From: a virus
Reading direction: 5' to 3' (one strand)
Virus record (IMG/VR): IMGVR_UViG_3300045988_167023
Length of the DNA: 41,261 bases
Made by a program: the position numbers and the translations under genes. Below are positions 13,877-27,049 of this stretch, in pieces; the first letter of the stretch is position 1; every line of letters starts with the position of its first letter. The notes beneath the pieces are model-generated. The model searched no databases. It worked only from the letters and a program-made list of their open reading frames with translations, and was not told the origin of the DNA.

Positions 13877-15099
13877 AAATTTAGCCCCTCGATTGAAATA
13901 ATCTTGTCAATGTCGCAAATTTCCGAGTGTATAGCATAGCGAACCGCGTCCAATGTATCATCATTTTTTTTAATCGGCTCGTCTTTCTTCTCGTCCCATA
14001 CATACGAATATATCTCTTTTTCGAAATTGACAAGCCCCTTTCTGTATGCGAAGAAATGTTTACTTTTAATCAGGCGCGCAACGTCGCTTATTCCCTCTAA
14101 AACATTCTTATTCGCATTAGTGGCCAGCAATCCGGCATTTTGGAACTTCTGAACATACTCGGGGCGGGCGGAATCGCAGTAAAAAACTATATTACCAAAG
14201 ATTTCAACGATTTTCTTCGCCTTAGGCAGCCAAAAGGAATCAACATCTTCGTGCTGCGCAGCAATTTCTAAAATTAAATAAAAATCATTTCCGGCTTGGC
14301 CGAAGACAACGATTGATCCAAAATGTTCGTATCCCCAGTCAACGCCAGCAAAAAACTTGTCAAAGCTTATGTCTTGCAAATTGTCAACAATATGCTGCTT
14401 TGCGTCAAAGTCTTTATAAACGACACCCTCGGGCGTTACCCACAAGCCCAAAATATTGCGGTCGTAAAACATACCGGTAGGCGTGGTTTTCTTGATATTT
14501 TCAACATACTTCGAATCAAGGAAAGTATTATCGTCAAGCTTGAAATGATAGGCCGCAATGTATTTTCCGTCAGCCTTATCGATGTAGTCGCATTTTAGCC
14601 AATGGAGCGGGTCAGACGGGTTTGTATCAGATAAAATGCGCGCGCCTGGTCCAGAACATCGAGAGATAATCTCGTCAAATACTTCCCGATTTGCCATTGT
14701 CGCCTCGTTTATGAAAGCACCCCAAGAAGTCATACCGCGAATTACTGATAAACAGCCAATATCATCGTGGCCGAAACAACAAACTTGAACACCGAAAAGC
14801 GTAAAAGTGTTAAATTTGGTTAATCTTATGGACAGGCCGAAACGATTTTCAATCTCATTTATAACGTTACGCTGGATTGACCCGATTGAAGAACCAGCCA
14901 AAATATACTGCGGCCGCGTTGTATTCTGCATTGCAGCACGTTTGCGCACGTTTCGCAGCTCGTTTAAAAATAAATCAATGTCTAAAATTGTTTTTCCCGC
15001 ACGTTTTGCCCCATGAAGAAAAAGCATAAAAAAATCATTATTAAAATAAAATTTTAAAACTTCCTGCTGCTTAGGTGTATAAAGGGCGTCAATATTCAT
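13873..15099 (-). CDS. Terminase large subunit (PBSX/XtmB-like).
   Basis: Walker A motif GAKRAGKT near the N-terminus; 408 aa. Confidence 0.85.
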   Translation of the reverse strand: MNIDALYTPKQQEVLKFYFNNDFFMLFLHGAKRAGKTILDIDLFLNELRNVRKRAAMQNTTRPQYILAGSSIGSIQRNVINEIENRFGLSIRLTKFNTFTLFGVQVCCFGHDDIGCLSVIRGMTSWGAFINEATMANREVFDEIISRCSGPGARILSDTNPSDPLHWLKCDYIDKADGKYIAAYHFKLDDNTFLDSKYVENIKKTTPTGMFYDRNILGLWVTPEGVVYKDFDAKQHIVDNLQDISFDKFFAGVDWGYEHFGSIVVFGQAGNDFYLILEIAAQHEDVDSFWLPKAKKIVEIFGNIVFYCDSARPEYVQKFQNAGLLATNANKNVLEGISDVARLIKSKHFFAYRKGLVNFEKEIYSYVWDEKKDEPIKKNDDTLDAVRYAIHSEICDIDKIISIEGLNL

Positions 15100-15479
15100 T
15101 TTTTAAACTTACCCTCTAATTTCGTAAACAGCTCGTCAATCTTATCTTCTTTGGACGGGTCGCCTTTTGGCTCTTCGCCGATAGTTTTTTGGATTTGCTG
15201 AAACGCAAATGTATTTCCTTTTGCGGCTGCGTTTATCTGCCCGAAAACCATGGCGGTTTTATATGTTACGTCTTTTGCGTCGATTCCCGGCACCATCGTC
15301 CGCAATTTTTCTTCAATATCTTTGCTCGGCTTGCTGTTCAGCAGCATTTCGGCAATCTGCAATAACGTTTTCTTGTTTCGTTTCGCAATAACCGACGCCT
15401 TACCGCCAGCCGACGCAATGCGCCTCCGTTCTTCTGGCGTTCGTGTACGTAAATCAACCAATGTTTCTGGATTAGCCAA
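15096..15479 (-). CDS. Terminase small subunit (probable TTG start).
   Basis: RBS GGGGG 7 nt before an in-frame TTG at 15479; the track ORF extends to 15566. Overlaps the large terminase start. Confidence 0.5.
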   Translation of the reverse strand: MANPETLVDLRTRTPEERRRIASAGGKASVIAKRNKKTLLQIAEMLLNSKPSKDIEEKLRTMVPGIDAKDVTYKTAMVFGQINAAAKGNTFAFQQIQKTIGEEPKGDPSKEDKIDELFTKLEGKFKK

Positions 15480-15621
15480 GACACAACCCCCTATTTTTTT
15501 TACAGAATAAATGTTTTGGCAAAAAAAACAAGTCAAAAAAGGCGGGGCTGCCGTGTGTGCCGGCATTCTTTACCTGATTAAGAACTTGCCCCTTATCTCA
15601 TTAAAGTTAAAAAGTAAGGTT

Positions 15622-16821
15622 TTAATTATTTATTAAAACAGCTTTTTCTCCCGTTAGATTTTCCCAACGCTGAATAATCACATCGCAGTAGTGTTCATCG
15701 AGCTCCATCATAAAACAATTGCGTTTTAATTGTTCACATGCAATAAGTGTGCTACCGCTACCGCCAAAAACATCCAGAACATTTTCTTCATTCTTTGTTG
15801 AATTAAGAAGAGCATTTGCAATCAATTCAACAGGCTTCATTGTCGGATGAAGTTTGCTTGCTGTTCTTTTATATTCCCAAACAGATTTATCTTGTTCCCC
15901 TTTTCTTTGAAAGTCGTGATTTTTTACCCATCCATACAAAATTGGTTCGTGCTTATAATCATAATCCAATCTGCCCATTGAAAAAACGGGTGCGTCCTTA
16001 ACCCATATAATTTGATGACGGCAAGGTATTCCTGCTTTCCTCATCATCATCATCATCATCATCATCTCTTGATCGCCACCTTGACAAGAAAATACATAAT
16101 AACTTGCTGTATCTTTCAAACAAGAAAAAGCGTTTGTAAATACATCATATAAAAAGTCTTGAAATTGGTCTAAAGTCAAATCATCGTTTTGTATTTTTGT
16201 ATATGATTTGCTCTTAAGAACCTCTTTTGTCTTTTTCTCGTAAGAAACTCCGTACGGCGGGTCTGTAAATAATAAATCCGCTTTTTCACCGTTCATCAAC
16301 TTTTCAACATCATCAATCTTTGTGCTATCACCACACATCAAGCGGTGATTTCCCAATTGCCAAATATCACCATGCTTACAACGTGTTTCTATTTTTTCCG
16401 GAACTTCATCTTCTGTAATTTGATTGTCTTCTTCTGCTTCTGTTTCAACTTCGCCCCAGTCTAAGCCCCAAGATGTAGTCAAGGCTTTATCCCAATCAGC
16501 GGTTAAGATTTCCCAATCCCACTCGCCGTCTGAAATATTATCAGTAATGACAATTTCGTCTTTTTCGGCTTGTGTGAGGGGGCGGGTTGGATACATAACC
16601 GGTATTTCTAAATCTTTCCCCGCAATTTTCAAAAGAGCTTTTAACCGCTGATTCCCACCCAAAACGTTTAAATTCTCATCGGTTTTAACTGGATTATGAA
16701 AGCCAAGACGCTGGATTTTATCTTGAAGACGCTCCAGTTTTTCTTTTGAAATTTTGCGCGGATTTTTGGCGTTAGGGATCAGGTCGCCAATGCGTACATA
16801 TTTAACCTGCCAAATATCCAT
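15622..16821 (-). CDS. ParB-like N-terminal domain fused to a beta-class amino DNA methyltransferase (DPPY, then FGGSGST).
   Basis: N-terminal GGNQRLKAL ParB-type motif; motif IV LFTDPPYG; motif I VFGGSGST at the C-terminus. Confidence 0.8.
   Translation of the reverse strand: MDIWQVKYVRIGDLIPNAKNPRKISKEKLERLQDKIQRLGFHNPVKTDENLNVLGGNQRLKALLKIAGKDLEIPVMYPTRPLTQAEKDEIVITDNISDGEWDWEILTADWDKALTTSWGLDWGEVETEAEEDNQITEDEVPEKIETRCKHGDIWQLGNHRLMCGDSTKIDDVEKLMNGEKADLLFTDPPYGVSYEKKTKEVLKSKSYTKIQNDDLTLDQFQDFLYDVFTNAFSCLKDTASYYVFSCQGGDQEMMMMMMMMRKAGIPCRHQIIWVKDAPVFSMGRLDYDYKHEPILYGWVKNHDFQRKGEQDKSVWEYKRTASKLHPTMKPVELIANALLNSTKNEENVLDVFGGSGSTLIACEQLKRNCFMMELDEHYCDVIIQRWENLTGEKAVLINN
16042..16065 (-). repeat. 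(CAT)8 on plus = (ATG)8 on the coding strand; encodes Met x8 inside the methyltransferase.
   Basis: Read directly; corresponds to aa 253..260 of the 15622..16821 ORF. Confidence 0.95.
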
Positions 16822-16947: not shown

Positions 16948-17292
16948 TTAATCGTCCGGAACTTCAACTTTTGGACTGCTCATTTTGGATTTTGGCCGCG
17001 TTTCTTCAACAAGCGTTTTGTCGCAAAGCCATTGATATTGCCTAAAACTCAAGCCCTGCGAATTATACAGGCAACCAATATCTACTTTTTCGGCCTTATC
17101 TGCCGACATCTTTTGCCAGGGTTTGTAAAACCAAATTTTCGTGTATTTTTCATTTCTGAAAGTTTTTATATTATAATCGCTGTTAAGGCGCTTTTTTTTG
17201 GCGTAGGCGCGAATTTCTTTTTTGTCGCCATCTACTACCGCAAATTTACAACTTTGTAGCTCACGCATAAAAATATCGCCGAAATCGGTCAT
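16948..17292 (-). CDS. Hypothetical protein.
   Basis: 114-aa ORF whose start overlaps the upstream gene. Confidence 0.4.
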   Translation of the reverse strand: MTDFGDIFMRELQSCKFAVVDGDKKEIRAYAKKKRLNSDYNIKTFRNEKYTKIWFYKPWQKMSADKAEKVDIGCLYNSQGLSFRQYQWLCDKTLVEETRPKSKMSSPKVEVPDD

Positions 17293-18146
17293 TTTTTTTC
17301 ATCTCCCTTAATATTACTGTTGTTATTTCCTAGTTGAAGGTTTTTTGGAATCCCCAAGAGGTCGCCCCATTTTCCTTGTCGTTTAGCAAAGTTGGTTATC
17401 TGCTGGCAAATAAAGTTTTTATCAACCATTTGATTTTTATGATTTTTTACCAGCCAAGAATTGAGGGACTGGCGTAAAATACTGTCTGCATTTGCATACG
17501 GTTTAAAAAACGGGTCGTTGTCGAAGTCGATGTTGAACCCGTCGCAGATATAGCATTGTTCAACGTTTTTCTTCGCAGACAGCAACGGGTTAAAAAACTG
17601 ATTACTTTCATTTAAATTTTTTTCTTTTATTTTATTTTCTTTTTTAAAATTATTATCAGTTAAGTAAGTAGTATCAGTATTATTACTATTACTATTACCT
17701 GGGGGGCTAGCAACCCCCTTATCAGGGGCTGGCAAGGGGCTATTTAGGGGCTTGCTAGGGGCTTCGTAGGGGCTAGCAACCCCCTTATCAGGGGCTAAAA
17801 TATTATTATAACGAACCCGATTTTCTTTAAGAATGGCAATGATTTGTTTATGCGCATTGTTCTTCGGATTCAAAAAATCGCCTTGCTGAAATTTTATAAA
17901 TCTTGTCAAATAAAAATTTCCGTTCTCAAGCTTAACAATACGTTTCTTATCTGTGTTTAATGATAGAATGTCTTCCTCGGTTATTTTCTCACCGATAAAG
18001 ACTTCAAGCAAAATATAATTTGGCTCATATATGCCGGCATTATCGCAACTGTCATATAAATAGCGCAGCAGTAACTTTTGTTTCATCGAGTATTTTAAAA
18101 AAAACTCTTTGCCCCAAAGTTCTGTATCTGTAAACCTTTTAGCCAT
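17289..18146 (-). CDS. Replisome organizer / replication initiator-like protein (Phage_rep_org_N-like N-terminus).
   Basis: N-terminal W.KEFFLKY...LLLRYLYDSCDNAGIY pattern. The central linker APDKGVASP is repeated and is encoded by iteron DNA. Confidence 0.45.
   Translation of the reverse strand: MAKRFTDTELWGKEFFLKYSMKQKLLLRYLYDSCDNAGIYEPNYILLEVFIGEKITEEDILSLNTDKKRIVKLENGNFYLTRFIKFQQGDFLNPKNNAHKQIIAILKENRVRYNNILAPDKGVASPYEAPSKPLNSPLPAPDKGVASPPGNSNSNNTDTTYLTDNNFKKENKIKEKNLNESNQFFNPLLSAKKNVEQCYICDGFNIDFDNDPFFKPYANADSILRQSLNSWLVKNHKNQMVDKNFICQQITNFAKRQGKWGDLLGIPKNLQLGNNNSNIKGDEKK
17702..17796. repeat. Iteron array, candidate replication origin: (A/G)GGGGCT phased at 11 bp.
   Basis: Copies start at 17702, 17724, 17735, 17746, 17757, 17768 and 17790, all multiples of 11 apart. 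A 28-bp unit GGGGCTAGCAACCCCCTTATCAGGGGCT occurs twice. An AT-rich tract lies at about 17560..17700. Confidence 0.6.
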
Positions 18147-19315: not shown

Positions 19316-20008
19316 TTATTCGTCGCTGTTTTCATCTGAATCATCGTCAACGTTTTCCAAAACTTCGTCAACTTCCTTGTCGCCGTCCTGAACCTGCTCG
19401 GCCTCAATCAAAAACGGGGCAGTCGTTACTTTTCCATTTTCTGAAACCGTCGCAATTTTCGGCTCTCTTTTCAGATTAAAAGAAACTTCAACCGAATTTT
19501 TAATTATGTCTATGCAGTTCGTTGAAATAAACACGCCAGAAGTCGGGACCGTTACTTCACCGCATAAATATCTAAATTCGATTCTATTGTATTTTTCAGA
19601 CGCTGCAGACGCTGAAATTGCCTGTCCGGAGATTATCGCACCGCGGTTAATTTCGTGGGCTACGGACGAAAACGATAGATCAATAATTTTACGGCAATTT
19701 TGAACAAGAGCTTGCGCAATCTTCGTTGTCCGTTCATCTTCGTTAATCTTTTCCAAATAACGGTTTTTGCAATCAACCACCAAACGGACAATAACCGCGT
19801 CCAGAACATCTTTTTGTTTTTGCGTCAACTCCAAATCATCAGTAAAAAACGTTCTGTTTTTCAGTTCTACCGCAATAGACGCCGCTATATCGTGCGCCAA
19901 ATCTGAATAGTGGTCAAAATTCATAACTTCCGAAAAAATATTATTTACGCATTCTTGAGCGACATCATTTTTAACATCTGCAATCGAATCATTTTGAACA
20001 ACTGTCAT
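19316..20008 (-). CDS. Replication-module protein with a strongly acidic C-terminal tail (SSB-like or DUF669-like).
   Basis: C-terminus DGDKEVDEVLENVDDDSDENSDE; immediately downstream of the helicase gene. Confidence 0.35.
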   Translation of the reverse strand: MTVVQNDSIADVKNDVAQECVNNIFSEVMNFDHYSDLAHDIAASIAVELKNRTFFTDDLELTQKQKDVLDAVIVRLVVDCKNRYLEKINEDERTTKIAQALVQNCRKIIDLSFSSVAHEINRGAIISGQAISASAASEKYNRIEFRYLCGEVTVPTSGVFISTNCIDIIKNSVEVSFNLKREPKIATVSENGKVTTAPFLIEAEQVQDGDKEVDEVLENVDDDSDENSDE

Positions 20009-21447
20009 TTTCTTTTCCTTTTTCTTGAATTTAAAACAATTTTAGCCCAGGCGTACGGATTAGAATAACCCCGCTGTTTTCCAAGCTCTAAAAGCTTGTT
20101 GAAAGCGTTGGCCTCTTTCCTCTCACGTTCTTTCTGGACTTTCTGAATTTCAACAAGTTCGGCATCAATAAATTCAATTTCACGCTGTGATTTTATAGCA
20201 TTTTCAGCACCAAAACCACAAACGGGGCAGGCGCGCAAACTTGATTTATAACAAGCATAACACTGCGGACAAGTGCGAATAAAAATTTCGTCTTCGTCCC
20301 GTTTCTGCTTACGGCGTCCCTCTAAGCTCCAATCTCTTTCGTCTTCCGGGAAACCGTGATTTTCCACATTCCGGACGTGATCCAAAATTATTGAATACTC
20401 TTTACCAGAATATGGCCGCAAAACACGTCCAGCCTGCTGCAAATAAAGCGACAAGCTTTTTGTTTTGCGTAAAAATATGGCACAACCTACAACTGGGATA
20501 TCTGTCCCCTCGGAAATGATATTGCAGGAAGTCAAGCCGTCATATCGCCCGGAGCCTAAGCCCTCAATAGCGTCGCGGCGGTCAAAATCAGACATTGTGC
20601 CGTCAATACATTTAAAATTAAAACCTGCGTTACAAAATTGCTCTGCTGTATGCCTTGCGTGTTCGATTGTTGAGCAAAAAGCAATTGCCGGCATATTTGG
20701 ACATATTTTTGAATAATGCCGGACGCAATCCCCTATAATTTGCGGCTGGTCAAGCATTTCAGACATTTGTTTAACATCATAATCACCCGCAATAGTGCGC
20801 AATGCGGAATCATCAAAGTTTATCGGCGGAGCAAAAACTCTCGGCTGCGACAAATACCCGCGTTCAATCAAGGATTTTACAGACGGGCCAAGTACGAGTT
20901 TTTCATAAACCCCGCCGGATTCTATGCCTAAACCTTTACCGTCAAGGCGTTCCGGCGTTGCTGTCAGCCCGAGCAAAAAGGCATTCGGATTTCTGTCTGT
21001 AACGTTTCGCCATTGACCTGCAACGGCGTGATGACATTCATCGGTTATAATGAAGTCAAAATAATTTGTAAACTCGTCTAATCTGCGGCCGAGCGTCTGC
21101 ACACTGGCAACGACGCACGGGCTGTTTAAATCAATATAGTTTCGCCCAAGTTCCCTATACTGAATTTGTGCAGATGATTTTATAACCGACGCGGGCGCAA
21201 TTATCGCATTCGGAATTTGAAATTTGGCCAAAGCCAAAGACGTTTGTAAAATCAATTCTTGCCGGTGAACCAAAATAACGACTTTGCTGCCCTGGCTAAT
21301 TGCTCCGTTGGCAATGTATGAAAAAATAACAGTTTTACCGGAACCGGTCGGAGACTGTCCGCAAACCGCTTTATATCCGGCGCAAAACTGGCTGTGAATA
21401 TCTTTAATGAAATTCTTTTGATAATCGCGCAAAATAAATTTTGCCAT
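20005..21447 (-). CDS. SF2 DExH-box DNA helicase with a C-terminal Cys4 zinc ribbon.
   Basis: Motifs I GQSPTGSGKT, II DECHH, III LTATPER, VI QQAGRVLR, and CPQC...CPVC. Start at MAKFIL (21447) preceded by RBS GAGGGA. Confidence 0.8.
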   Translation of the reverse strand: MAKFILRDYQKNFIKDIHSQFCAGYKAVCGQSPTGSGKTVIFSYIANGAISQGSKVVILVHRQELILQTSLALAKFQIPNAIIAPASVIKSSAQIQYRELGRNYIDLNSPCVVASVQTLGRRLDEFTNYFDFIITDECHHAVAGQWRNVTDRNPNAFLLGLTATPERLDGKGLGIESGGVYEKLVLGPSVKSLIERGYLSQPRVFAPPINFDDSALRTIAGDYDVKQMSEMLDQPQIIGDCVRHYSKICPNMPAIAFCSTIEHARHTAEQFCNAGFNFKCIDGTMSDFDRRDAIEGLGSGRYDGLTSCNIISEGTDIPVVGCAIFLRKTKSLSLYLQQAGRVLRPYSGKEYSIILDHVRNVENHGFPEDERDWSLEGRRKQKRDEDEIFIRTCPQCYACYKSSLRACPVCGFGAENAIKSQREIEFIDAELVEIQKVQKERERKEANAFNKLLELGKQRGYSNPYAWAKIVLNSRKRKRK

Positions 21448-21555
21448 TCCCTTAAATTCCCTCAATTTTAATAATATGACATATACATAAACCCAAAAAA
21501 ATAATTTGTAAAGCAAAAAAAATATAAAATAAGCAAAAATAATATAAAAAAGTTC

Positions 21556-21584
21556 TTTACAAATAAAATTTTTGATCTTATAAT
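21556..21584 (+). promoter_or_regulatory. Sigma70-like early promoter P1: TTTACA, 17-nt spacer, TATAAT, with an upstream A-tract element.
   Basis: -35 at 21556..21561 and -10 at 21579..21584, 46 nt upstream of the first plus-strand gene. The upstream 21511..21552 region is an A-tract repeat. Confidence 0.65.
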
Positions 21585-21629
21585 TGCCAGCGTAAGAGGT
21601 AATTACAAACTTTTTTAAGGGGTATTAAG

Positions 21630-21920
21630 ATGAAAAGAATGTATAATACTTTTGAAGAATTTGAACAACTGCCGCAGGAAGTTAAAAACAAAATCATTAG
21701 AGATTTGGCTGCCTATGATGAAACACACGTTTTCTTTGAACATGGTAAATATGATGTTTCGGTTGACTGGTGCTTGCGCGCAAGTTACGGCAGCGATCAC
21801 CGTTTTATCGGAGAGTGGAGCTATAAAGATTTATCTGAAAGGCTGCCGGAGCTTAAAAAAGCCCGTGAGGATTATCTGAATGAGTGCAGCAACTATAACT
21901 GGGACGCTTTAAATGATTAA
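21630..21920 (+). CDS. First early gene; acidic 96-aa hypothetical protein.
   Basis: RBS AAGGGG upstream; directly after P1. Confidence 0.5.
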   Translation: MKRMYNTFEEFEQLPQEVKNKIIRDLAAYDETHVFFEHGKYDVSVDWCLRASYGSDHRFIGEWSYKDLSERLPELKKAREDYLNECSNYNWDALND

Positions 21921-22728: not shown

Positions 22729-23632
22729 CGAAACTAAAAAAGATTTAGTCGTTGCAGAACAGCAACCGCCTTTAACCGATGTTTTTTCAAATGTCAAAGC
22801 GTTCACCGACGCACAAAGGATTTGTAAAGCCTTGACGCAAAGCGGGATTGTTCCTGTATCTTATCAAGGTGAGCAGAATCTACCAAACGCAATGGTAGCG
22901 CTTGAAATGGCTAACCGTATCGGTATTTCTCCGATTTCGGTAATGCAGAATTTACACGTTATTGAGGGGCGCCCGTCGTGGTCTTCAAACTTTATTATCT
23001 CAATGCTTAATTCGTCCGGGAAATTCACCCCGTTACGCTTTAAGTACGAAAATAGAGGGCCGAAAAAATTTATACGTTCTTATAAAAAATGGAGCAAAGC
23101 TAAAAATTGCTATGAAGATTTTAAAGAAGAGGCCGAGGCCGAAGATATAATTTGTTCAGCTTATGCCACAGATAAATTGACGGGTGAAGTAATCGAGGGG
23201 CCAGAGGCAAGCGTTGAAATGGCTATGCAAGAGGGCTGGTTGACTAAAAACGGCAGCAAGTGGCGCACAATGCCTAAGCTTATGCTGGCATATCGTGCAG
23301 CTGCATTTTTCGGCCGTCTATATGCTCCAGAGCTACTGCTGGGAATACACTCCGATGATGAATTGAACGACATCGCGCCGAGCATTCCCAGCGCGCCGAA
23401 AATAATTGAACCCGACGGAGATATACCGCCTATTATTGAGGTTGAAACAAAACAAGAGGCTGAACCGGAAGAAATCGAAGTTGAAGTAATTACAGATAAA
23501 GCCCCGGAAACAGTTGAAGAAAAAGTTGCGGCTATTATTGAGCCGGAAAAGAAACCGCAGCAGCCTGCGCCGGAGAAAAAAGCCCCTGCCGCAGCTGCAA
23601 AAGCGCCGTTTATGTTTAATTTTGAAGAATGA
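22715..23632 (+). CDS. RecT-family ssDNA annealing protein.
   Basis: Motif AMQEGWLTKNGSKWRTMPKLMLAYRAAAFFGRLYAPELL. Confidence 0.7.
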   Translation: MTEDNETKKDLVVAEQQPPLTDVFSNVKAFTDAQRICKALTQSGIVPVSYQGEQNLPNAMVALEMANRIGISPISVMQNLHVIEGRPSWSSNFIISMLNSSGKFTPLRFKYENRGPKKFIRSYKKWSKAKNCYEDFKEEAEAEDIICSAYATDKLTGEVIEGPEASVEMAMQEGWLTKNGSKWRTMPKLMLAYRAAAFFGRLYAPELLLGIHSDDELNDIAPSIPSAPKIIEPDGDIPPIIEVETKQEAEPEEIEVEVITDKAPETVEEKVAAIIEPEKKPQQPAPEKKAPAAAAKAPFMFNFEE

Positions 23633-23642
23633 GGAAAAAAAT

Positions 23643-25310
23643 ATGTTAAAATTTGAAGTCGAAAATTTTATGGGTTGCAAAAAGGCAAACGTTGAAACAA
23701 GCCAAATTTCATTTATTTGCGGGTTAAATCATCAGGGAAAAAGCTCGTTTTTAACGGCTGTATCTGGAGCTTTAACCGGGCAGCCGGTTGTTTTAGGGTT
23801 GCGCAAAACTGATCTCGGTATGCTGGTTTATACCGGGAAAGCCTCCGGGAAAGTAAAAATTGAAAATGAAGACAGTAGCGTTTCTGTAACATATCCAAAA
23901 GCGGAATTATTGACTGAGGGAGAGAATCCGCCGACAACTTCGAAAATTGCGGCCGGTATGGAAAGCTTGATTGATTTTTCAGAGAAAAAAAGGTCTGAAT
24001 TTATCCGCAATTTAACCGAATGCGTCCCCTCTAAAACAGATTTAGAAGAATTTTTGGCCGAACGATTTATTACTAAAAAAAATGTAGTCGAGGCTGTTTG
24101 GCAAAAGGTAGATCAGGACGGATTTGACGCAAGCTTGGAACGGGCAAAGGATACCGGCAGAGCATTAAAACAGCAATGGTCTATGGTTACGGGCGAAACC
24201 TACGGCAGCAATAAAGCGCAGACTTGGCAGCCGCAGGGCTGGACTTCCGACCTTGTTGACGTTTCAGAAGAATCCTTGCAAGCTGATTTAACAGGTTTGC
24301 AGGCAGAATTGGAAAATTTAATCAGTCATCAGGCCATTGACGAAAACGAATTGGCTAAATTGAGAGAAACAGCTAGCGATTCTGTCTTGGCGCAGCTTAA
24401 AATTGACCGGGATAAAACTATTACAGAATTAGCAATGGCCCGTAAATCATTTTATGAATTTAAGCGCGAATTTGACGAACTGCCGAAATATGATGAAAGC
24501 GGGAAAAAACTTTGTCCGCATTGCGGAAAACCTTTGACTATCAAAGGCGGAGAGCTGGCCGAGTTTATCGAACCCAGCGCCGAAGAAAAGACAGCCGTTC
24601 AGAAAAAACGCACGGAATTGTCCGAAAAAATGCAAAAAGCTGATATTGAAGTTAAACGTCTGGAATCGCTTTACGCCGTTTCTTTATCGAAAGTAGAAGA
24701 AACGGAAAAAGCAAATAAACGCCTTTACGAGCTTGAACGGAAATCGTCAGGAAATGCCAGCCAGCGAGATATTGACTTAAAGCGTGAAGAAATCCGCAAG
24801 CAGCAAGAGGGAATTGCAGCATTTAAGGCAGCCAAAGAGGCTAAAAGACTGGCGCAGAATATTATTGAAAATCAGGCAATAATTGACGCGTTGGATATGT
24901 CGGGAATCCGTCAAAAATCAATGCTTAAAGGCTTGCAAATTTTCAATGCTCAATTATCCGAAATCTGCAATACAGCAGGTTGGGGAACTGTTAAAATCGA
25001 TAATGATTTAACTATTTTAATGGGTGATCGCCCTTATATTCTGCTTTCAGAGAGCGAAAAAATGCGCTGCCGCATAACTCTTCAAATGGCTGTAGCTATT
25101 ATGCAGGACGATAAAATTGTTATTATCGACGGTGCAGAAATTCTTGATAAAAACGGAAAATCAGGGCTGTTAAATCTTCTTTATTTAACGCACATTGACG
25201 CTTTAATTGGTATGATGTGCAGCGATCCGGCGAAAGCCCCGCGCGTAGATGATTGCGGAATAAGAAGTTATTGGGCTAACAATGGGGTTTTTGAATTGAT
25301 AAAGGATTGA
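23643..25310 (+). CDS. SbcC/Rad50-like ATPase with a zinc hook.
   Basis: Walker A GLNHQGKSS; a long central coiled coil containing CPHCGKP; Walker B IVIIDGAEILD. Start at MLKFEV after RBS GAGGAAAAAAAT. Confidence 0.6.
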   Translation: MLKFEVENFMGCKKANVETSQISFICGLNHQGKSSFLTAVSGALTGQPVVLGLRKTDLGMLVYTGKASGKVKIENEDSSVSVTYPKAELLTEGENPPTTSKIAAGMESLIDFSEKKRSEFIRNLTECVPSKTDLEEFLAERFITKKNVVEAVWQKVDQDGFDASLERAKDTGRALKQQWSMVTGETYGSNKAQTWQPQGWTSDLVDVSEESLQADLTGLQAELENLISHQAIDENELAKLRETASDSVLAQLKIDRDKTITELAMARKSFYEFKREFDELPKYDESGKKLCPHCGKPLTIKGGELAEFIEPSAEEKTAVQKKRTELSEKMQKADIEVKRLESLYAVSLSKVEETEKANKRLYELERKSSGNASQRDIDLKREEIRKQQEGIAAFKAAKEAKRLAQNIIENQAIIDALDMSGIRQKSMLKGLQIFNAQLSEICNTAGWGTVKIDNDLTILMGDRPYILLSESEKMRCRITLQMAVAIMQDDKIVIIDGAEILDKNGKSGLLNLLYLTHIDALIGMMCSDPAKAPRVDDCGIRSYWANNGVFELIKD

Positions 25311-25311
25311 T

Positions 25312-25524
25312 ATGGAAAATAATTTTGAACAATTTTTAACCATTAAAGAACTTGCTGCACGTTGGCGGAAATGTATTTATACAATATATCGCTGGAAAGA
25401 TAGCAAGCCGGATTTTCCTGCTCAATTCAGACAAGGAGAAAAAGGCATTGTCTTTGATATTCAAGATGTTATCCGCTATGAACAGAGGATAAAAGCAAAA
25501 AAAAGCAAAAAAAAGCAAAAATAA
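25312..25524 (+). CDS. Small HTH DNA-binding protein (excisionase/AlpA-like fold) with a basic tail.
   Basis: Motif LTIKELAARW...IYRW; C-terminus KAKKSKKKQK. Confidence 0.5.
   Translation: MENNFEQFLTIKELAARWRKCIYTIYRWKDSKPDFPAQFRQGEKGIVFDIQDVIRYEQRIKAKKSKKKQK
25491..25520 (+). repeat. (AAAAGCAAAA)x3 perfect tandem repeat; phased A-tracts.
   Basis: Read directly. Has a 10-bp period. Overlaps the 3' end of the HTH gene and lies upstream of P2. Confidence 0.9.
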
Positions 25525-25536
25525 TACAAAAAAGTG

Positions 25537-25954: not shown

Positions 25955-26139
25955 TGATAAATCAGATGACGCTTGCAGAGGCTTTAATTGGATTGCAGAG
26001 AATTAAAGACAAAATTGAACTTCACGAAATGGCGAACGATATGTATTATTCAAGCGCGCAGCACGTTGAAGACGAACAGGAATTAAAATTTTGGCAAAAA
26101 AGAGTTAAAGAGTTGGAGGTAACCGATGACAGAATTTAG
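25954..26139 (+). CDS. Hypothetical protein.
   Basis: 61 aa, translationally coupled to its neighbours. Confidence 0.45.
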   Translation: MINQMTLAEALIGLQRIKDKIELHEMANDMYYSSAQHVEDEQELKFWQKRVKELEVTDDRI

Positions 26140-27049
26140 CATAAATTTAGAATTTGCACAACGAGCTTTTAACGGAACTTCATTTAATCCTGAACGCCGC
26201 GGCGAACTTTTTGTAAAAGATTTTGACGATTTATTACTCTGCATTAAAAATAAAATTTTTTCTGATAAAATTCTTTTAGACGGGCAAAAGCAGGAAATTT
26301 ACGAAAGAATTGCCAGCAAGCTTAAAGTTCTGGCTGAAAAATATTTATCCGCCGAATCGCGTAGCGTTTCATCTATGATTGTAGGACCGGCGAAGTTTCC
26401 AGTTGCGCGCCAGCAAAAAGTTATGCGCAGCGTTGAAAAAAATCTTAATGAATATGTTGACCGTATTGAATGGCTGCAAAATGGTGGGTTAAGTAAAATA
26501 TTATATCGGAATTATCCAGATGAGGCGAAAAAGGAGCTTGATGAAAAGGAAGACGAAAAAAAACTTATGGTTAATGCGAAATTGTTTGTTGAAAACAAGA
26601 TTTCGGAAAAAGATCCAGAAGTGTTTACTTTTAACGCTTTCCCGCATTTAAAAGGCTGCTTTGAAACCTGCGCAAAACATAAATCTTTTAATGCCTGCCG
26701 CAAGTGTATTGAATTTTTGGAAAGCCAGCTTGATTTTTGCCGCATACAGCGCAATATAACTATTCTTAAAAGGATTTTATCAGAGGCAGAGGAAAAAAGC
26801 GCAGAAACGCCGGAAAAATCTGTTAAACAGCAAGATTTTAAACATTTTATAGTTATCGAAAACGAACAAATAAACCGTTATCAAATAATTTTCGGCGGCA
26901 AGCCTGCCCCTGAAATTATTAAAAATCTTAAAGAAAACGGCTTTAAATGGGCGCCCAGTCAAAAAGCTTGGCAGCGGCAAATAACAATTAACGGCAAGCT
27001 TGCAATTAAACGCTTTGCGGAATTTATGGAGACAATCGACGATGAGTAA
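26126..27049 (+). CDS. Hypothetical 307-aa protein.
   Basis: Largest unknown early protein; C-terminus NRYQIIFGGKPAPEIIKNLKENGFKWAPSQKAWQRQ. Confidence 0.5.
   Translation: MTEFSINLEFAQRAFNGTSFNPERRGELFVKDFDDLLLCIKNKIFSDKILLDGQKQEIYERIASKLKVLAEKYLSAESRSVSSMIVGPAKFPVARQQKVMRSVEKNLNEYVDRIEWLQNGGLSKILYRNYPDEAKKELDEKEDEKKLMVNAKLFVENKISEKDPEVFTFNAFPHLKGCFETCAKHKSFNACRKCIEFLESQLDFCRIQRNITILKRILSEAEEKSAETPEKSVKQQDFKHFIVIENEQINRYQIIFGGKPAPEIIKNLKENGFKWAPSQKAWQRQITINGKLAIKRFAEFMETIDDE

Follow-up and report, generated by a model that had tools for sequence, protein, structure and literature searches.

A length-variable run of methionine codons encodes a predicted core helix in a subfamily of phage ParB-fold DNA methyltransferases

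We analysed a 41,261-nucleotide stretch of viral DNA (IMG/VR record IMGVR_UViG_3300045988_167023), referred to here as the window, focusing on a perfect trinucleotide repeat within one of its genes. Positions 16042-16065 read (CAT)8 on the plus strand and (ATG)8 on the minus strand, where the repeat lies in frame within a 399 amino acid (aa) open reading frame (ORF; 15622..16821, minus strand) and encodes Met253-Met260. The original prediction had drawn attention to these eight consecutive methionines, and both the sequence and the reading frame agree with it. Tandem Repeats Finder returned a period of 3 with 8.7 copies and 100 % matches, and (ATG)5 was found as four exact overlapping matches compared to 0.00 expected from 100 dinucleotide-preserving shuffles. 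The tract is the sole trinucleotide repeat of at least four units in the window, and across all six frames of the window it is the only site with a run of three or more Met. Homopolymeric Met runs are, to our knowledge, among the rarest of protein sequence features.

The ORF was assigned as a DNA methyltransferase (MTase) gene using a Pfam match to N6_N4_Mtase (PF01555; E 9e-32, 111.2 bits against a cut-off of 26.7, aa 182-382), structural comparison with Foldseek and its conserved neighbours. The catalytic motif IV, DPPY (aa 187-190; 16252..16263, minus strand), and the S-adenosylmethionine (AdoMet)-binding motif I, FGGSGST (aa 352-358; 15748..15768, minus strand), could be read from the translation and are invariant in an alignment of 47 relatives, and the tract falls between the two as had been proposed. 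Motif IV lies N-terminal to motif I, which is the order of the beta class. An AlphaFold2 (AF2) model, run with 47 sequences and with a mean predicted local distance difference test (pLDDT) score of 79.9, had as its best Foldseek matches in the PDB M.BceJIV (2.4e-11), CcrM (7e-11) and M1.HpyAVI (1e-10). With these enzymes (8URK, 6PBD and 5HFJ, respectively) the protein shares the order of motif IV then motif I, the PF01555 domain and a beta3/loop-3C/alphaC/beta4/loop-45 layout, although unlike them it carries an N-terminal ParB-fold domain.

The N-terminal domain (aa 5-96; 16534..16809, minus strand) is of a predicted ParB/Srx fold. Of the label “ParB-domain DNA methyltransferase” given originally, the MTase part is secure, whereas the ParB part holds at the level of profile and fold only: the Pfam ParB_N model (PF02195) scores the protein taken alone at 18 bits, below the cut-off of 26.3, while many relatives carry a precomputed PF02195 match, the family profile matches the solved N-domains of Noc (7nfu), Spo0J (6sdk) and ParB (4umk) with E 3-5e-7, and Foldseek aligns the AF2 model with ParB 6sdk (E 3e-6). 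The domain also contains a GxxRxxA-type motif, GNQRLKA, at aa 56-62. By profile and predicted fold, the protein combines a ParB-fold domain and a beta-class N6-adenine DNA methyltransferase in one chain. Ordinary phage or plasmid fusions of the same two domains, phage-borne and 37-43 % identical, are present for example in Streptococcus Javan prophages, Latilactobacillus phage TMW 1.2272 P1 and the ‘Heliusvirales’ gut phages. Fusions of a ParB-CTPase fold to N6_N4_Mtase have been surveyed (PMC12704722), and the searched passages of that survey contain no mention of a Met tract.

Within the 90 % identity cluster of the window protein, the number of Met residues ranged from four to eight with zero differences in the sequence flanking the tract: M4 (P0132) was found on one contig, M5 (P0130) on three, M6 (P0123) on six, M7 (P0121) on 19 and M8 (P0124, identical to the window protein) on eight. 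The contigs bearing these length alleles come from different samples, among them ERR1136754, ERR1136674, ERZ27261252, ERZ27261557, ERZ27261721 and ERR13909586. At the DNA level they fall into two haplotypes separated by 12-13 differences, all of which are silent with 0 replacements, and each haplotype contains several lengths; haplotype A, with 0/1176 nt differences from the window when the tract is set aside, has n=5, 6, 7 and 8, and haplotype B has n=4, 5 and 7. Because the haplotypes differ by silent changes only, the gene shows the sequence pattern of purifying selection. Comparison of 7.2-kb loci with the tract removed gave a single substitution between L045 (n=7) and L049 (n=4), eight substitutions between L050 (n=6) and L056 (n=8), and ten between L041 (n=7) and L052 (n=5). 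As the length alleles sit in near-identical loci and identical genes, several independent length changes occurred in a time of almost no point substitution, and the tract gains and loses whole codons by slippage much faster than point mutations accumulate. The variation in repeat number by in-frame slippage anticipated by the original prediction is thus present among near-identical contigs, and inspection of related genomes, as it had advised, extended it to n=3-9 in 113 clusters of relatives. Since Met has a single codon, the DNA behind a poly-Met helix can only be a pure trinucleotide repeat, and with a 3-nt unit the full-length ORF is kept in all alleles observed (n=3-17).

These data also bear on whether the tract might be a sequencing or assembly artefact, or the gene a decaying one, and the chance of either is close to nil. 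At least 37 contigs, drawn from assemblies of JGI, ENA and Logan, carry the exact M4-M8 alleles, the tract is present in thousands of relatives, at 24 bp it is far shorter than a read, and the presence of only silent differences between haplotypes is at odds with decay. The tract lies on dozens of independently assembled contigs, which rules out the artefact, and its length varies among them.

To define the distribution of the repeat we used the 120 best protein clusters at 90 % identity, which are 58-98 % identical to the window protein. The pattern SCQGGDQE(M)nR..G.PCRHQIIWVK with n=3-9 was carried by 113 of the 120, and n was 7 in 55 clusters, 6 in 43, 5 in eight, 8 in four, and 3, 4 and 9 in one cluster each; just two of the clusters had a substitution, to I or L, at the first position. 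An exhaustive phmmer search of 1.84e9 representative proteins identified 34,171 relatives, roughly 4,500 of them with E<1e-30, and about one third of the best 150 representatives at 50 % identity (37-58 % identical), which were inspected, had at least four Met at the helix position. Further out, M3-M17 occurred in relatives 33-50 % identical from unrelated metagenomes, and relatives 33-56 % identical carried M8-M17 following a ‘PQGG[DT][QH]’ loop on IMG/VR contigs and in metagenome-assembled genomes (MAGs) of four phyla labelled Peribacteria, Smithella, Acutalibacteraceae and Promineifilum. Because MMMMMMMM served as one of the search patterns in the scans of IMG/VR and GTDB, their length distribution is biased at n≥8, the cluster and phmmer distributions being less biased. 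The longest tract, a pure (ATG)17 at locus 3568 onward of L019 (IMGVR_UViG_3300045988_020807), encodes 17 Met at the homologous helix, about twice the usual length, and near relatives of this contig have nine (L009) and eight (L011) Met.

Three poly-Met queries, the window protein and two distant representatives, were searched against 50,697 deposited phage genomes. All matches were ≤47 % identical, and the seven top ones inspected, which ranked ahead of 700-1,100 weaker matches, included no poly-Met MTase and were all of the ordinary type. The poly-Met subfamily therefore appears to be known only from metagenomes. A microsatellite private to this phage is ruled out as poly-Met is found family-wide, and what had been taken as the oddity of one enzyme is conserved in a large subfamily. 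These comparisons establish that the putative poly-Met helix is inherited and has been conserved in a large subfamily of phage ParB-MTases that is so far uncultured. In the literature searched, from which subscription papers were mostly outside the scope, no account of DNA methyltransferases with poly-Met, poly-Leu or poly-Ala helices encoded by codon repeats came to light, and nothing relevant was found on poly-Met tracts, on MTases rich in Met or on phage MTases with in-frame trinucleotide repeats.

The tract had been described as a linker, which did not hold. In the AF2 model, the numbering of which is protein numbering minus 1, a strand (234-243) is followed by a helix (249-261), a strand (268-272) and two further strands (279-281 and 291-297), and the helix spans all eight Met within a block of pLDDT ~84. 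A linker between two half-domains is ruled out by this predicted helix within the Rossmann-like core. In protein numbering and on the minus strand, the elements around the tract begin with the strand ASYYVFSC (aa 239-246; 16084..16107), assigned as beta3 from the AF2 strand 234-243 and the alignments. This is followed by the loop QGGDQE (aa 247-252; 16066..16083), assigned as loop-3C, which aligns with M.BceJIV Thr106-Trp107-Gln108 and CcrM Tyr93-His94, and then by the predicted alpha-helix DQEMMMMMMMMRK (aa 250-262; 16036..16074), aligned with YHNIFRVGVAVQDL of CcrM and APEIFSFLKTQL of M.BceJIV and assigned as alphaC of both enzymes. The segment CRHQIIWVK (aa 267-275; 15997..16023), which contains the AF2 strand 268-272, corresponds to beta4 with its final Lys aligned to CcrM Lys118 (PMC6787082), and DAPVFSMGRLDYDYK (aa 276-290; 15952..15996) corresponds by profile alignment to loop-45, with its SMG aligned to the Met136-Gly137 DNA wedge of M.BceJIV (PMC11380664).

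Two alignments underlie these assignments. The phmmer alignment pairs ‘QGGDQEMMMMMMMMRKAG’ with CcrM ‘GSYHNIFRVGVAVQDLG’, which are CcrM residues ~91-107 after an 8-residue chain offset is corrected via Tyr34 of DPPY. The family profile alignment pairs ‘SCQGGDQE-MMMMMMM-REAGIPCRHQIIWVKDAPVFSMGR’ with M.BceJIV ‘CTWQYAPE-IFS--FLKTQLTMVNEIIWDR--RVPSMGG’, and a count from Thr106-Trp107-Gln108 lands exactly on Met136-Gly137; since the published numbering of Thr106/Trp107/Gln108 and Met136/Gly137 is reproduced, the M.BceJIV alignment can be regarded as validated. Model and alignments together place the poly-Met tract at the predicted helix alphaC, between beta3 and beta4 and directly after the Gly-rich loop QGGDQE that aligns with the DNA-contacting loop-3C. 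The repeat is therefore best described as a hypermutable in-frame simple sequence repeat (SSR) making up the body of a putative alphaC, a description for which we draw on its sequence and statistical significance, its conservation, its length alleles and the AF2 helix.

The published structures indicate what such a position may mean. In CcrM, loop-3C comprises residues 92-94, of which Tyr93 and His94 contact the target-strand T4, while Tyr109, Ile110 and Asp113, where beta4 begins, belong to the dimer/DNA interface and Lys118 is positioned at the flipped adenine (PMC6787082); residues 92-94 stand immediately before the CcrM helix that aligns with poly-Met. In M.BceJIV, Thr106-Trp107-Gln108 hold the flipped-out cytosine, Met136-Gly137 form the loop-45 wedge, and the dimer interface of ~1,738 Å2 is made mostly by helix alphaC, strands beta4-beta6 and loop-45 (PMC11380664). 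Dimerisation is required for the activity of beta-class MTases (PMC7544214), and in the rotifer N4CMT the loop that follows beta3 is likewise a part of the dimer interface (PMC10406627). By homology we infer that the window protein would homodimerise via alphaC/beta4-beta6/loop-45 and methylate DNA in an AdoMet-dependent manner (PMC11380664, PMC6787082, PMC7544214), and that the poly-Met helix would form part of an obligate homodimer interface as alphaC does in M.BceJIV. In place of a linker, the tract is thus a predicted helix inside the catalytic domain and, by that homology, at the dimer interface. The helix itself differs from its counterparts: alphaC is of mixed sequence in CcrM (NIFRVGVAVQDL) and M.BceJIV (APEIFSFLKTQL), whereas that of the window protein is a Met homopolymer ~3-4 residues longer and of variable length. 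Ordinary ParB-MTases have an amphipathic ‘HADTEGLNFRKAF/SEGYNFRGAC’ helix at alphaC with no repeat, which also occurs in the forms ‘SEGYNFRGACxDxGW’ or ‘TEGLNFRKAFxxAGF’.

The loop sequence raised a further possibility, namely that GGTGG acts as a Shine-Dalgarno (SD) sequence from which an ATG of the tract begins a 16-kDa C-terminal fragment of 140-147 aa with the AdoMet-binding half of the enzyme. The GGTGG noted originally occupies 16076-16080 of the minus strand, and 10 nt separate its end from the first ATG. The duplex with the anti-SD before ATG #1 has an energy of -7.0 kcal/mol, which is equal to that of the gene's own start, better than the median of 41 putative starts in a genome that clearly uses SD sequences (-6.0), and well beyond the median of internal in-frame ATGs (-1.55, n=184), placing the site in the top 3.8 % of these. 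An energy of -7 kcal/mol is typical of real starts in this genome. GGTGG is however formed by the codons of the conserved Gly-Gly, and among 32 distinct lineages the first of these codons was GGC in 18, GGT in 12, GGA in two and GGG in none. The combined frequency of GGA and GGG (2/32) compares with 42 % at the other Gly codons of the same genes (binomial P ~9e-6, the lineages not being independent). The rarity of GGA and GGG at the first Gly codon lends no support to selection for a ribosome-binding site; strong SD sequences instead appear from codon usage to be avoided upstream of the tract, which is the opposite. In addition, lineages differ in the spacing between this site and the first ATG, DPPY would be missing from the fragment, and database ‘proteins’ that start at the tract come from truncated contigs (P0143). 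We therefore consider internal initiation very improbable. As a separate observation, the rarity of GGA/GGG at 16078-16083 and the homologous codons suggests avoidance of a strong internal SD or of a ribosome-pause site before the ATG run.

The length of the predicted helix appears to be constrained. Six or seven Met were present in 98 of the 113 clusters of the window's clade, and among 45 deeply diverged poly-Met representatives the segment Q(GG)..W.K had mean lengths of 26.4, 27.4, 27.1, 27.8, 27.8, 28.7 and 27 aa for n=4 to 10, a change in n being mostly offset by flanking residues. Because the segment length is near constant while the flanks compensate for n, the data argue for stabilising selection on the total length of loop plus helix at ~27-28 aa. 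In the window the M8 allele gives a segment of 29 aa and would represent a long-tail allele.

In sister lineages that share the PQGG loop, the homologous position reads LLLLL, LLLLLL, ‘LIMLVMM’, ‘MMMTMMM’ or ‘MMIMMMMM’, with one protein having AAAAAAAA. Three of these relatives encode the homologous helix as other pure codon repeats, namely (CTA)5 for Leu5 in L066 (P0163), (CTC)5+CTG for Leu6 in L067 (P0245) and (GCA)8 for Ala8 in L068 (P0276); were all Leu codons used equally, five identical ones would be expected with a probability of ~8e-4. Because the Leu and Ala tracts are also pure codon repeats, what is conserved would therefore be a homopolymer, specified by a slippery repeat, of hydrophobic residues that strongly favour a helix. 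In the M domain of SRP54 and in calmodulin, clustered Met residues with flexible side chains give helices a malleable hydrophobic surface, although in these proteins the Met residues are dispersed in mixed sequence and, unlike the window tract, are neither a homopolymer nor a DNA repeat nor variable in length.

A preference for Met could also be read as a sensor of Met and AdoMet supply, in which eight AUG codons would render translation sensitive to charged elongator tRNA-Met and so couple enzyme output to the Met/AdoMet pool. The indications are circumstantial: the enzyme depends on AdoMet, a single codon encodes Met, the phage is without tRNA genes, and Met is much preferred over Leu or Ala at the helix. 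Sister lineages nevertheless function with poly-Leu or poly-Ala at the homologous helix, the tract lies in a structural helix as opposed to a leader peptide, and neither precedent nor supporting data were found in the literature searched. Such a sensor strikes us as even more remote than an internal start.

Taking these results together, our preferred reading, which we hold with moderate confidence, is that (ATG)8 encodes a homopolymeric Met helix alphaC whose length variation is mostly mutational noise around an optimum. As a rule, the core of an enzyme does not tolerate insertions. By homology to M.BceJIV, the uniformly hydrophobic helix would be buried with one face on its own sheet and the other on the partner subunit. 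A change of register would leave the surface of a homopolymer unaltered, and the Gly-Gly loop ahead of the helix could take up the slack from a shift in helix length. On this inference single-codon indels would be tolerated, because the helix is register-independent and the loop absorbs the shift, where a helix of mixed sequence would be wrecked. Length would be held by stabilising selection with a mode of 6-7 Met in the window's clade, and since length is so constrained most of the variation would be mutational noise around the optimum.

Several points weigh against this reading. Mutation bias on its own might produce a stationary length distribution, with no need for selection on length. The proteins from which burial of the helix at the interface is deduced are only ~20-24 % identical to the window protein, and the tolerance of a core helix to a 4-residue (~6 Å) range is asserted, so that some alleles may be inactive. 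The persistence of a pure repeat across lineages ~35 % identical is hard to reconcile with a neutral Met identity. Poly-Met (~47 representatives) also far exceeds poly-Leu/Ala (four), which is unexplained if any hydrophobic helix former suffices; the excess may reflect one ancient origin with long retention, or some specific benefit that the flexible side chain of Met brings to a symmetric interface.

The speed of length change invites comparison with the hypermutable SSRs of phasevarions (Mod, and HsdM/HsdS with SSRs), which likewise lie in MTase genes and give tract-length alleles among near-identical genomes. Phasevarion repeats have units not divisible by three, or act at promoters, and switch expression ON/OFF by frameshift, whereas the window tract with its 3-nt unit provides no ON/OFF switch. 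Another parallel is the (TAEL)2-3 repeat of the EcoR124I/EcoR124II HsdS subunit, a 12-bp heteropeptide unit in a coiled-coil spacer between two target recognition domains (TRDs), the copy number of which changes the recognition spacer from 6 to 7 bp. Both are in-frame repeats of naturally variable copy number in an alpha-helical segment of a methylation-system subunit, although the window tract is a one-codon homopolymer located in the predicted alphaC of the catalytic domain between beta3 and beta4, not between TRDs.

By analogy the window tract might be a selected in-frame contingency locus, or ‘rheostat’, in which helix length shifts loop-3C and/or the dimer geometry and so tunes methylation activity or target specificity, such that the phage population always holds variants suited to hosts with different restriction systems. 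In addition to the precedent of the EcoR124I/II spacer, length change is extremely fast in otherwise identical phages, the pure tract survives deep divergence, and the helix adjoins a DNA-contacting loop and sits, in M.BceJIV, in the interface that relates the TRD of one subunit to the active site of the other. The three re-encodings of alphaC as (CTA)5, (CTC)5 and (GCA)8 look as if the repeat character itself were kept. Their purity, however, arises automatically from slippage and so is no proof of selected mutability. The allele distribution is moreover unimodal and narrow (6-7 in 98/113 clusters), unlike that of a discrete-state switch, and the conservation of total segment length across lineages suggests one optimum. 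On balance we judge a selected rheostat unlikely. The corresponding proposal that one-codon helix steps would reset the loop-3C position together with dimer geometry, changing specificity or processivity and giving every burst some variants pre-adapted to hosts that differ in their restriction systems, is by analogy conceivable and a shade more doubtful; were it to hold, such a selected contingency device would have its evolutionary signature in the recurrent re-encoding of alphaC by (ATG)n, (CTA)n, (CTC)n and (GCA)n.

The MTase gene lies immediately upstream of the terminase genes, with a small-terminase-like ORF, the large terminase subunit (TerL) and portal following, and the neighbours are the same in all related contigs; a terminase-adjacent position was seen in the poly-Met contigs examined and in one poly-Leu relative. 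TerL is ~53 % identical to the TerL of Staphylococcus, Streptococcus and Lactococcus siphophages, and since the genes also use SD sites a Bacillota-type host is likely for this tailed phage. No tRNA genes were found in the phage, including any tRNA-Met that could support the Met run. The window is the full 41,261-bp contig carrying P0124 and related contigs are 38-41 kb, and it is probably a complete phage genome. Megablast of window positions 1-25000 against the 50,697 deposited phages gave no match, from which the phage appears to be an uncultured lineage, recurring in many samples, and the DNA of the MTase gene matched nothing in deposited phages beyond patches of 130-150 bp.

A number of other features were observed in the window. 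The ORF between the MTase gene and TerL (15096-15566, minus strand), in the small-terminase position and matching phrog_2412 of unknown function, has an ambiguous start, being 156 aa from the first ATG with gene callers giving a 127-aa product on most related contigs. Two genes upstream of the MTase gene, a 285-aa ORF with no Pfam or PHROG match (17289..18146, minus strand) contains at 17703-17797 about seven AGGGGCT motifs with 11-bp spacing, bracketed by the 22-bp direct repeat GGGGCTAGCAACCCCCTTATCA and corresponding at the protein level to a duplicated APDKGVASP segment. From its sequence this array looks like replication-origin iterons embedded in an initiator gene. The divergent intergenic region at 21511-21913, between the helicase gene (20005..21516, minus strand) and the exonuclease/RecT genes (21913 onward, plus strand), coincides with a change in sign of the GC skew, has an AT-rich 20-bp direct repeat at 21511-21549 and is probably an early regulatory region. 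The gap between ORFs 23514..25310 and 26126..27049 contains a (AAAAGCAAAA)x4.2 tandem repeat at 25491-25533.

This phage MTase subfamily builds a core helix, probably at the dimer interface, from a pure Met repeat, and sister lineages do so from pure Leu or Ala. As a strain marker for these phages of the gut or the environment the tract is highly polymorphic, and annotation pipelines may mis-call starts at it. If the variation in length is only tolerated, the helix would be a natural example of a register-independent element that makes an enzyme robust to slippage, which would be of use in protein design and would help to explain the persistence of coding microsatellites. If instead the variation is functional, it would offer phages a new, frame-preserving route to diversify anti-restriction methylation, and a selected device of this kind would parallel phasevarions and the EcoR124 TAEL switch while preserving the frame.

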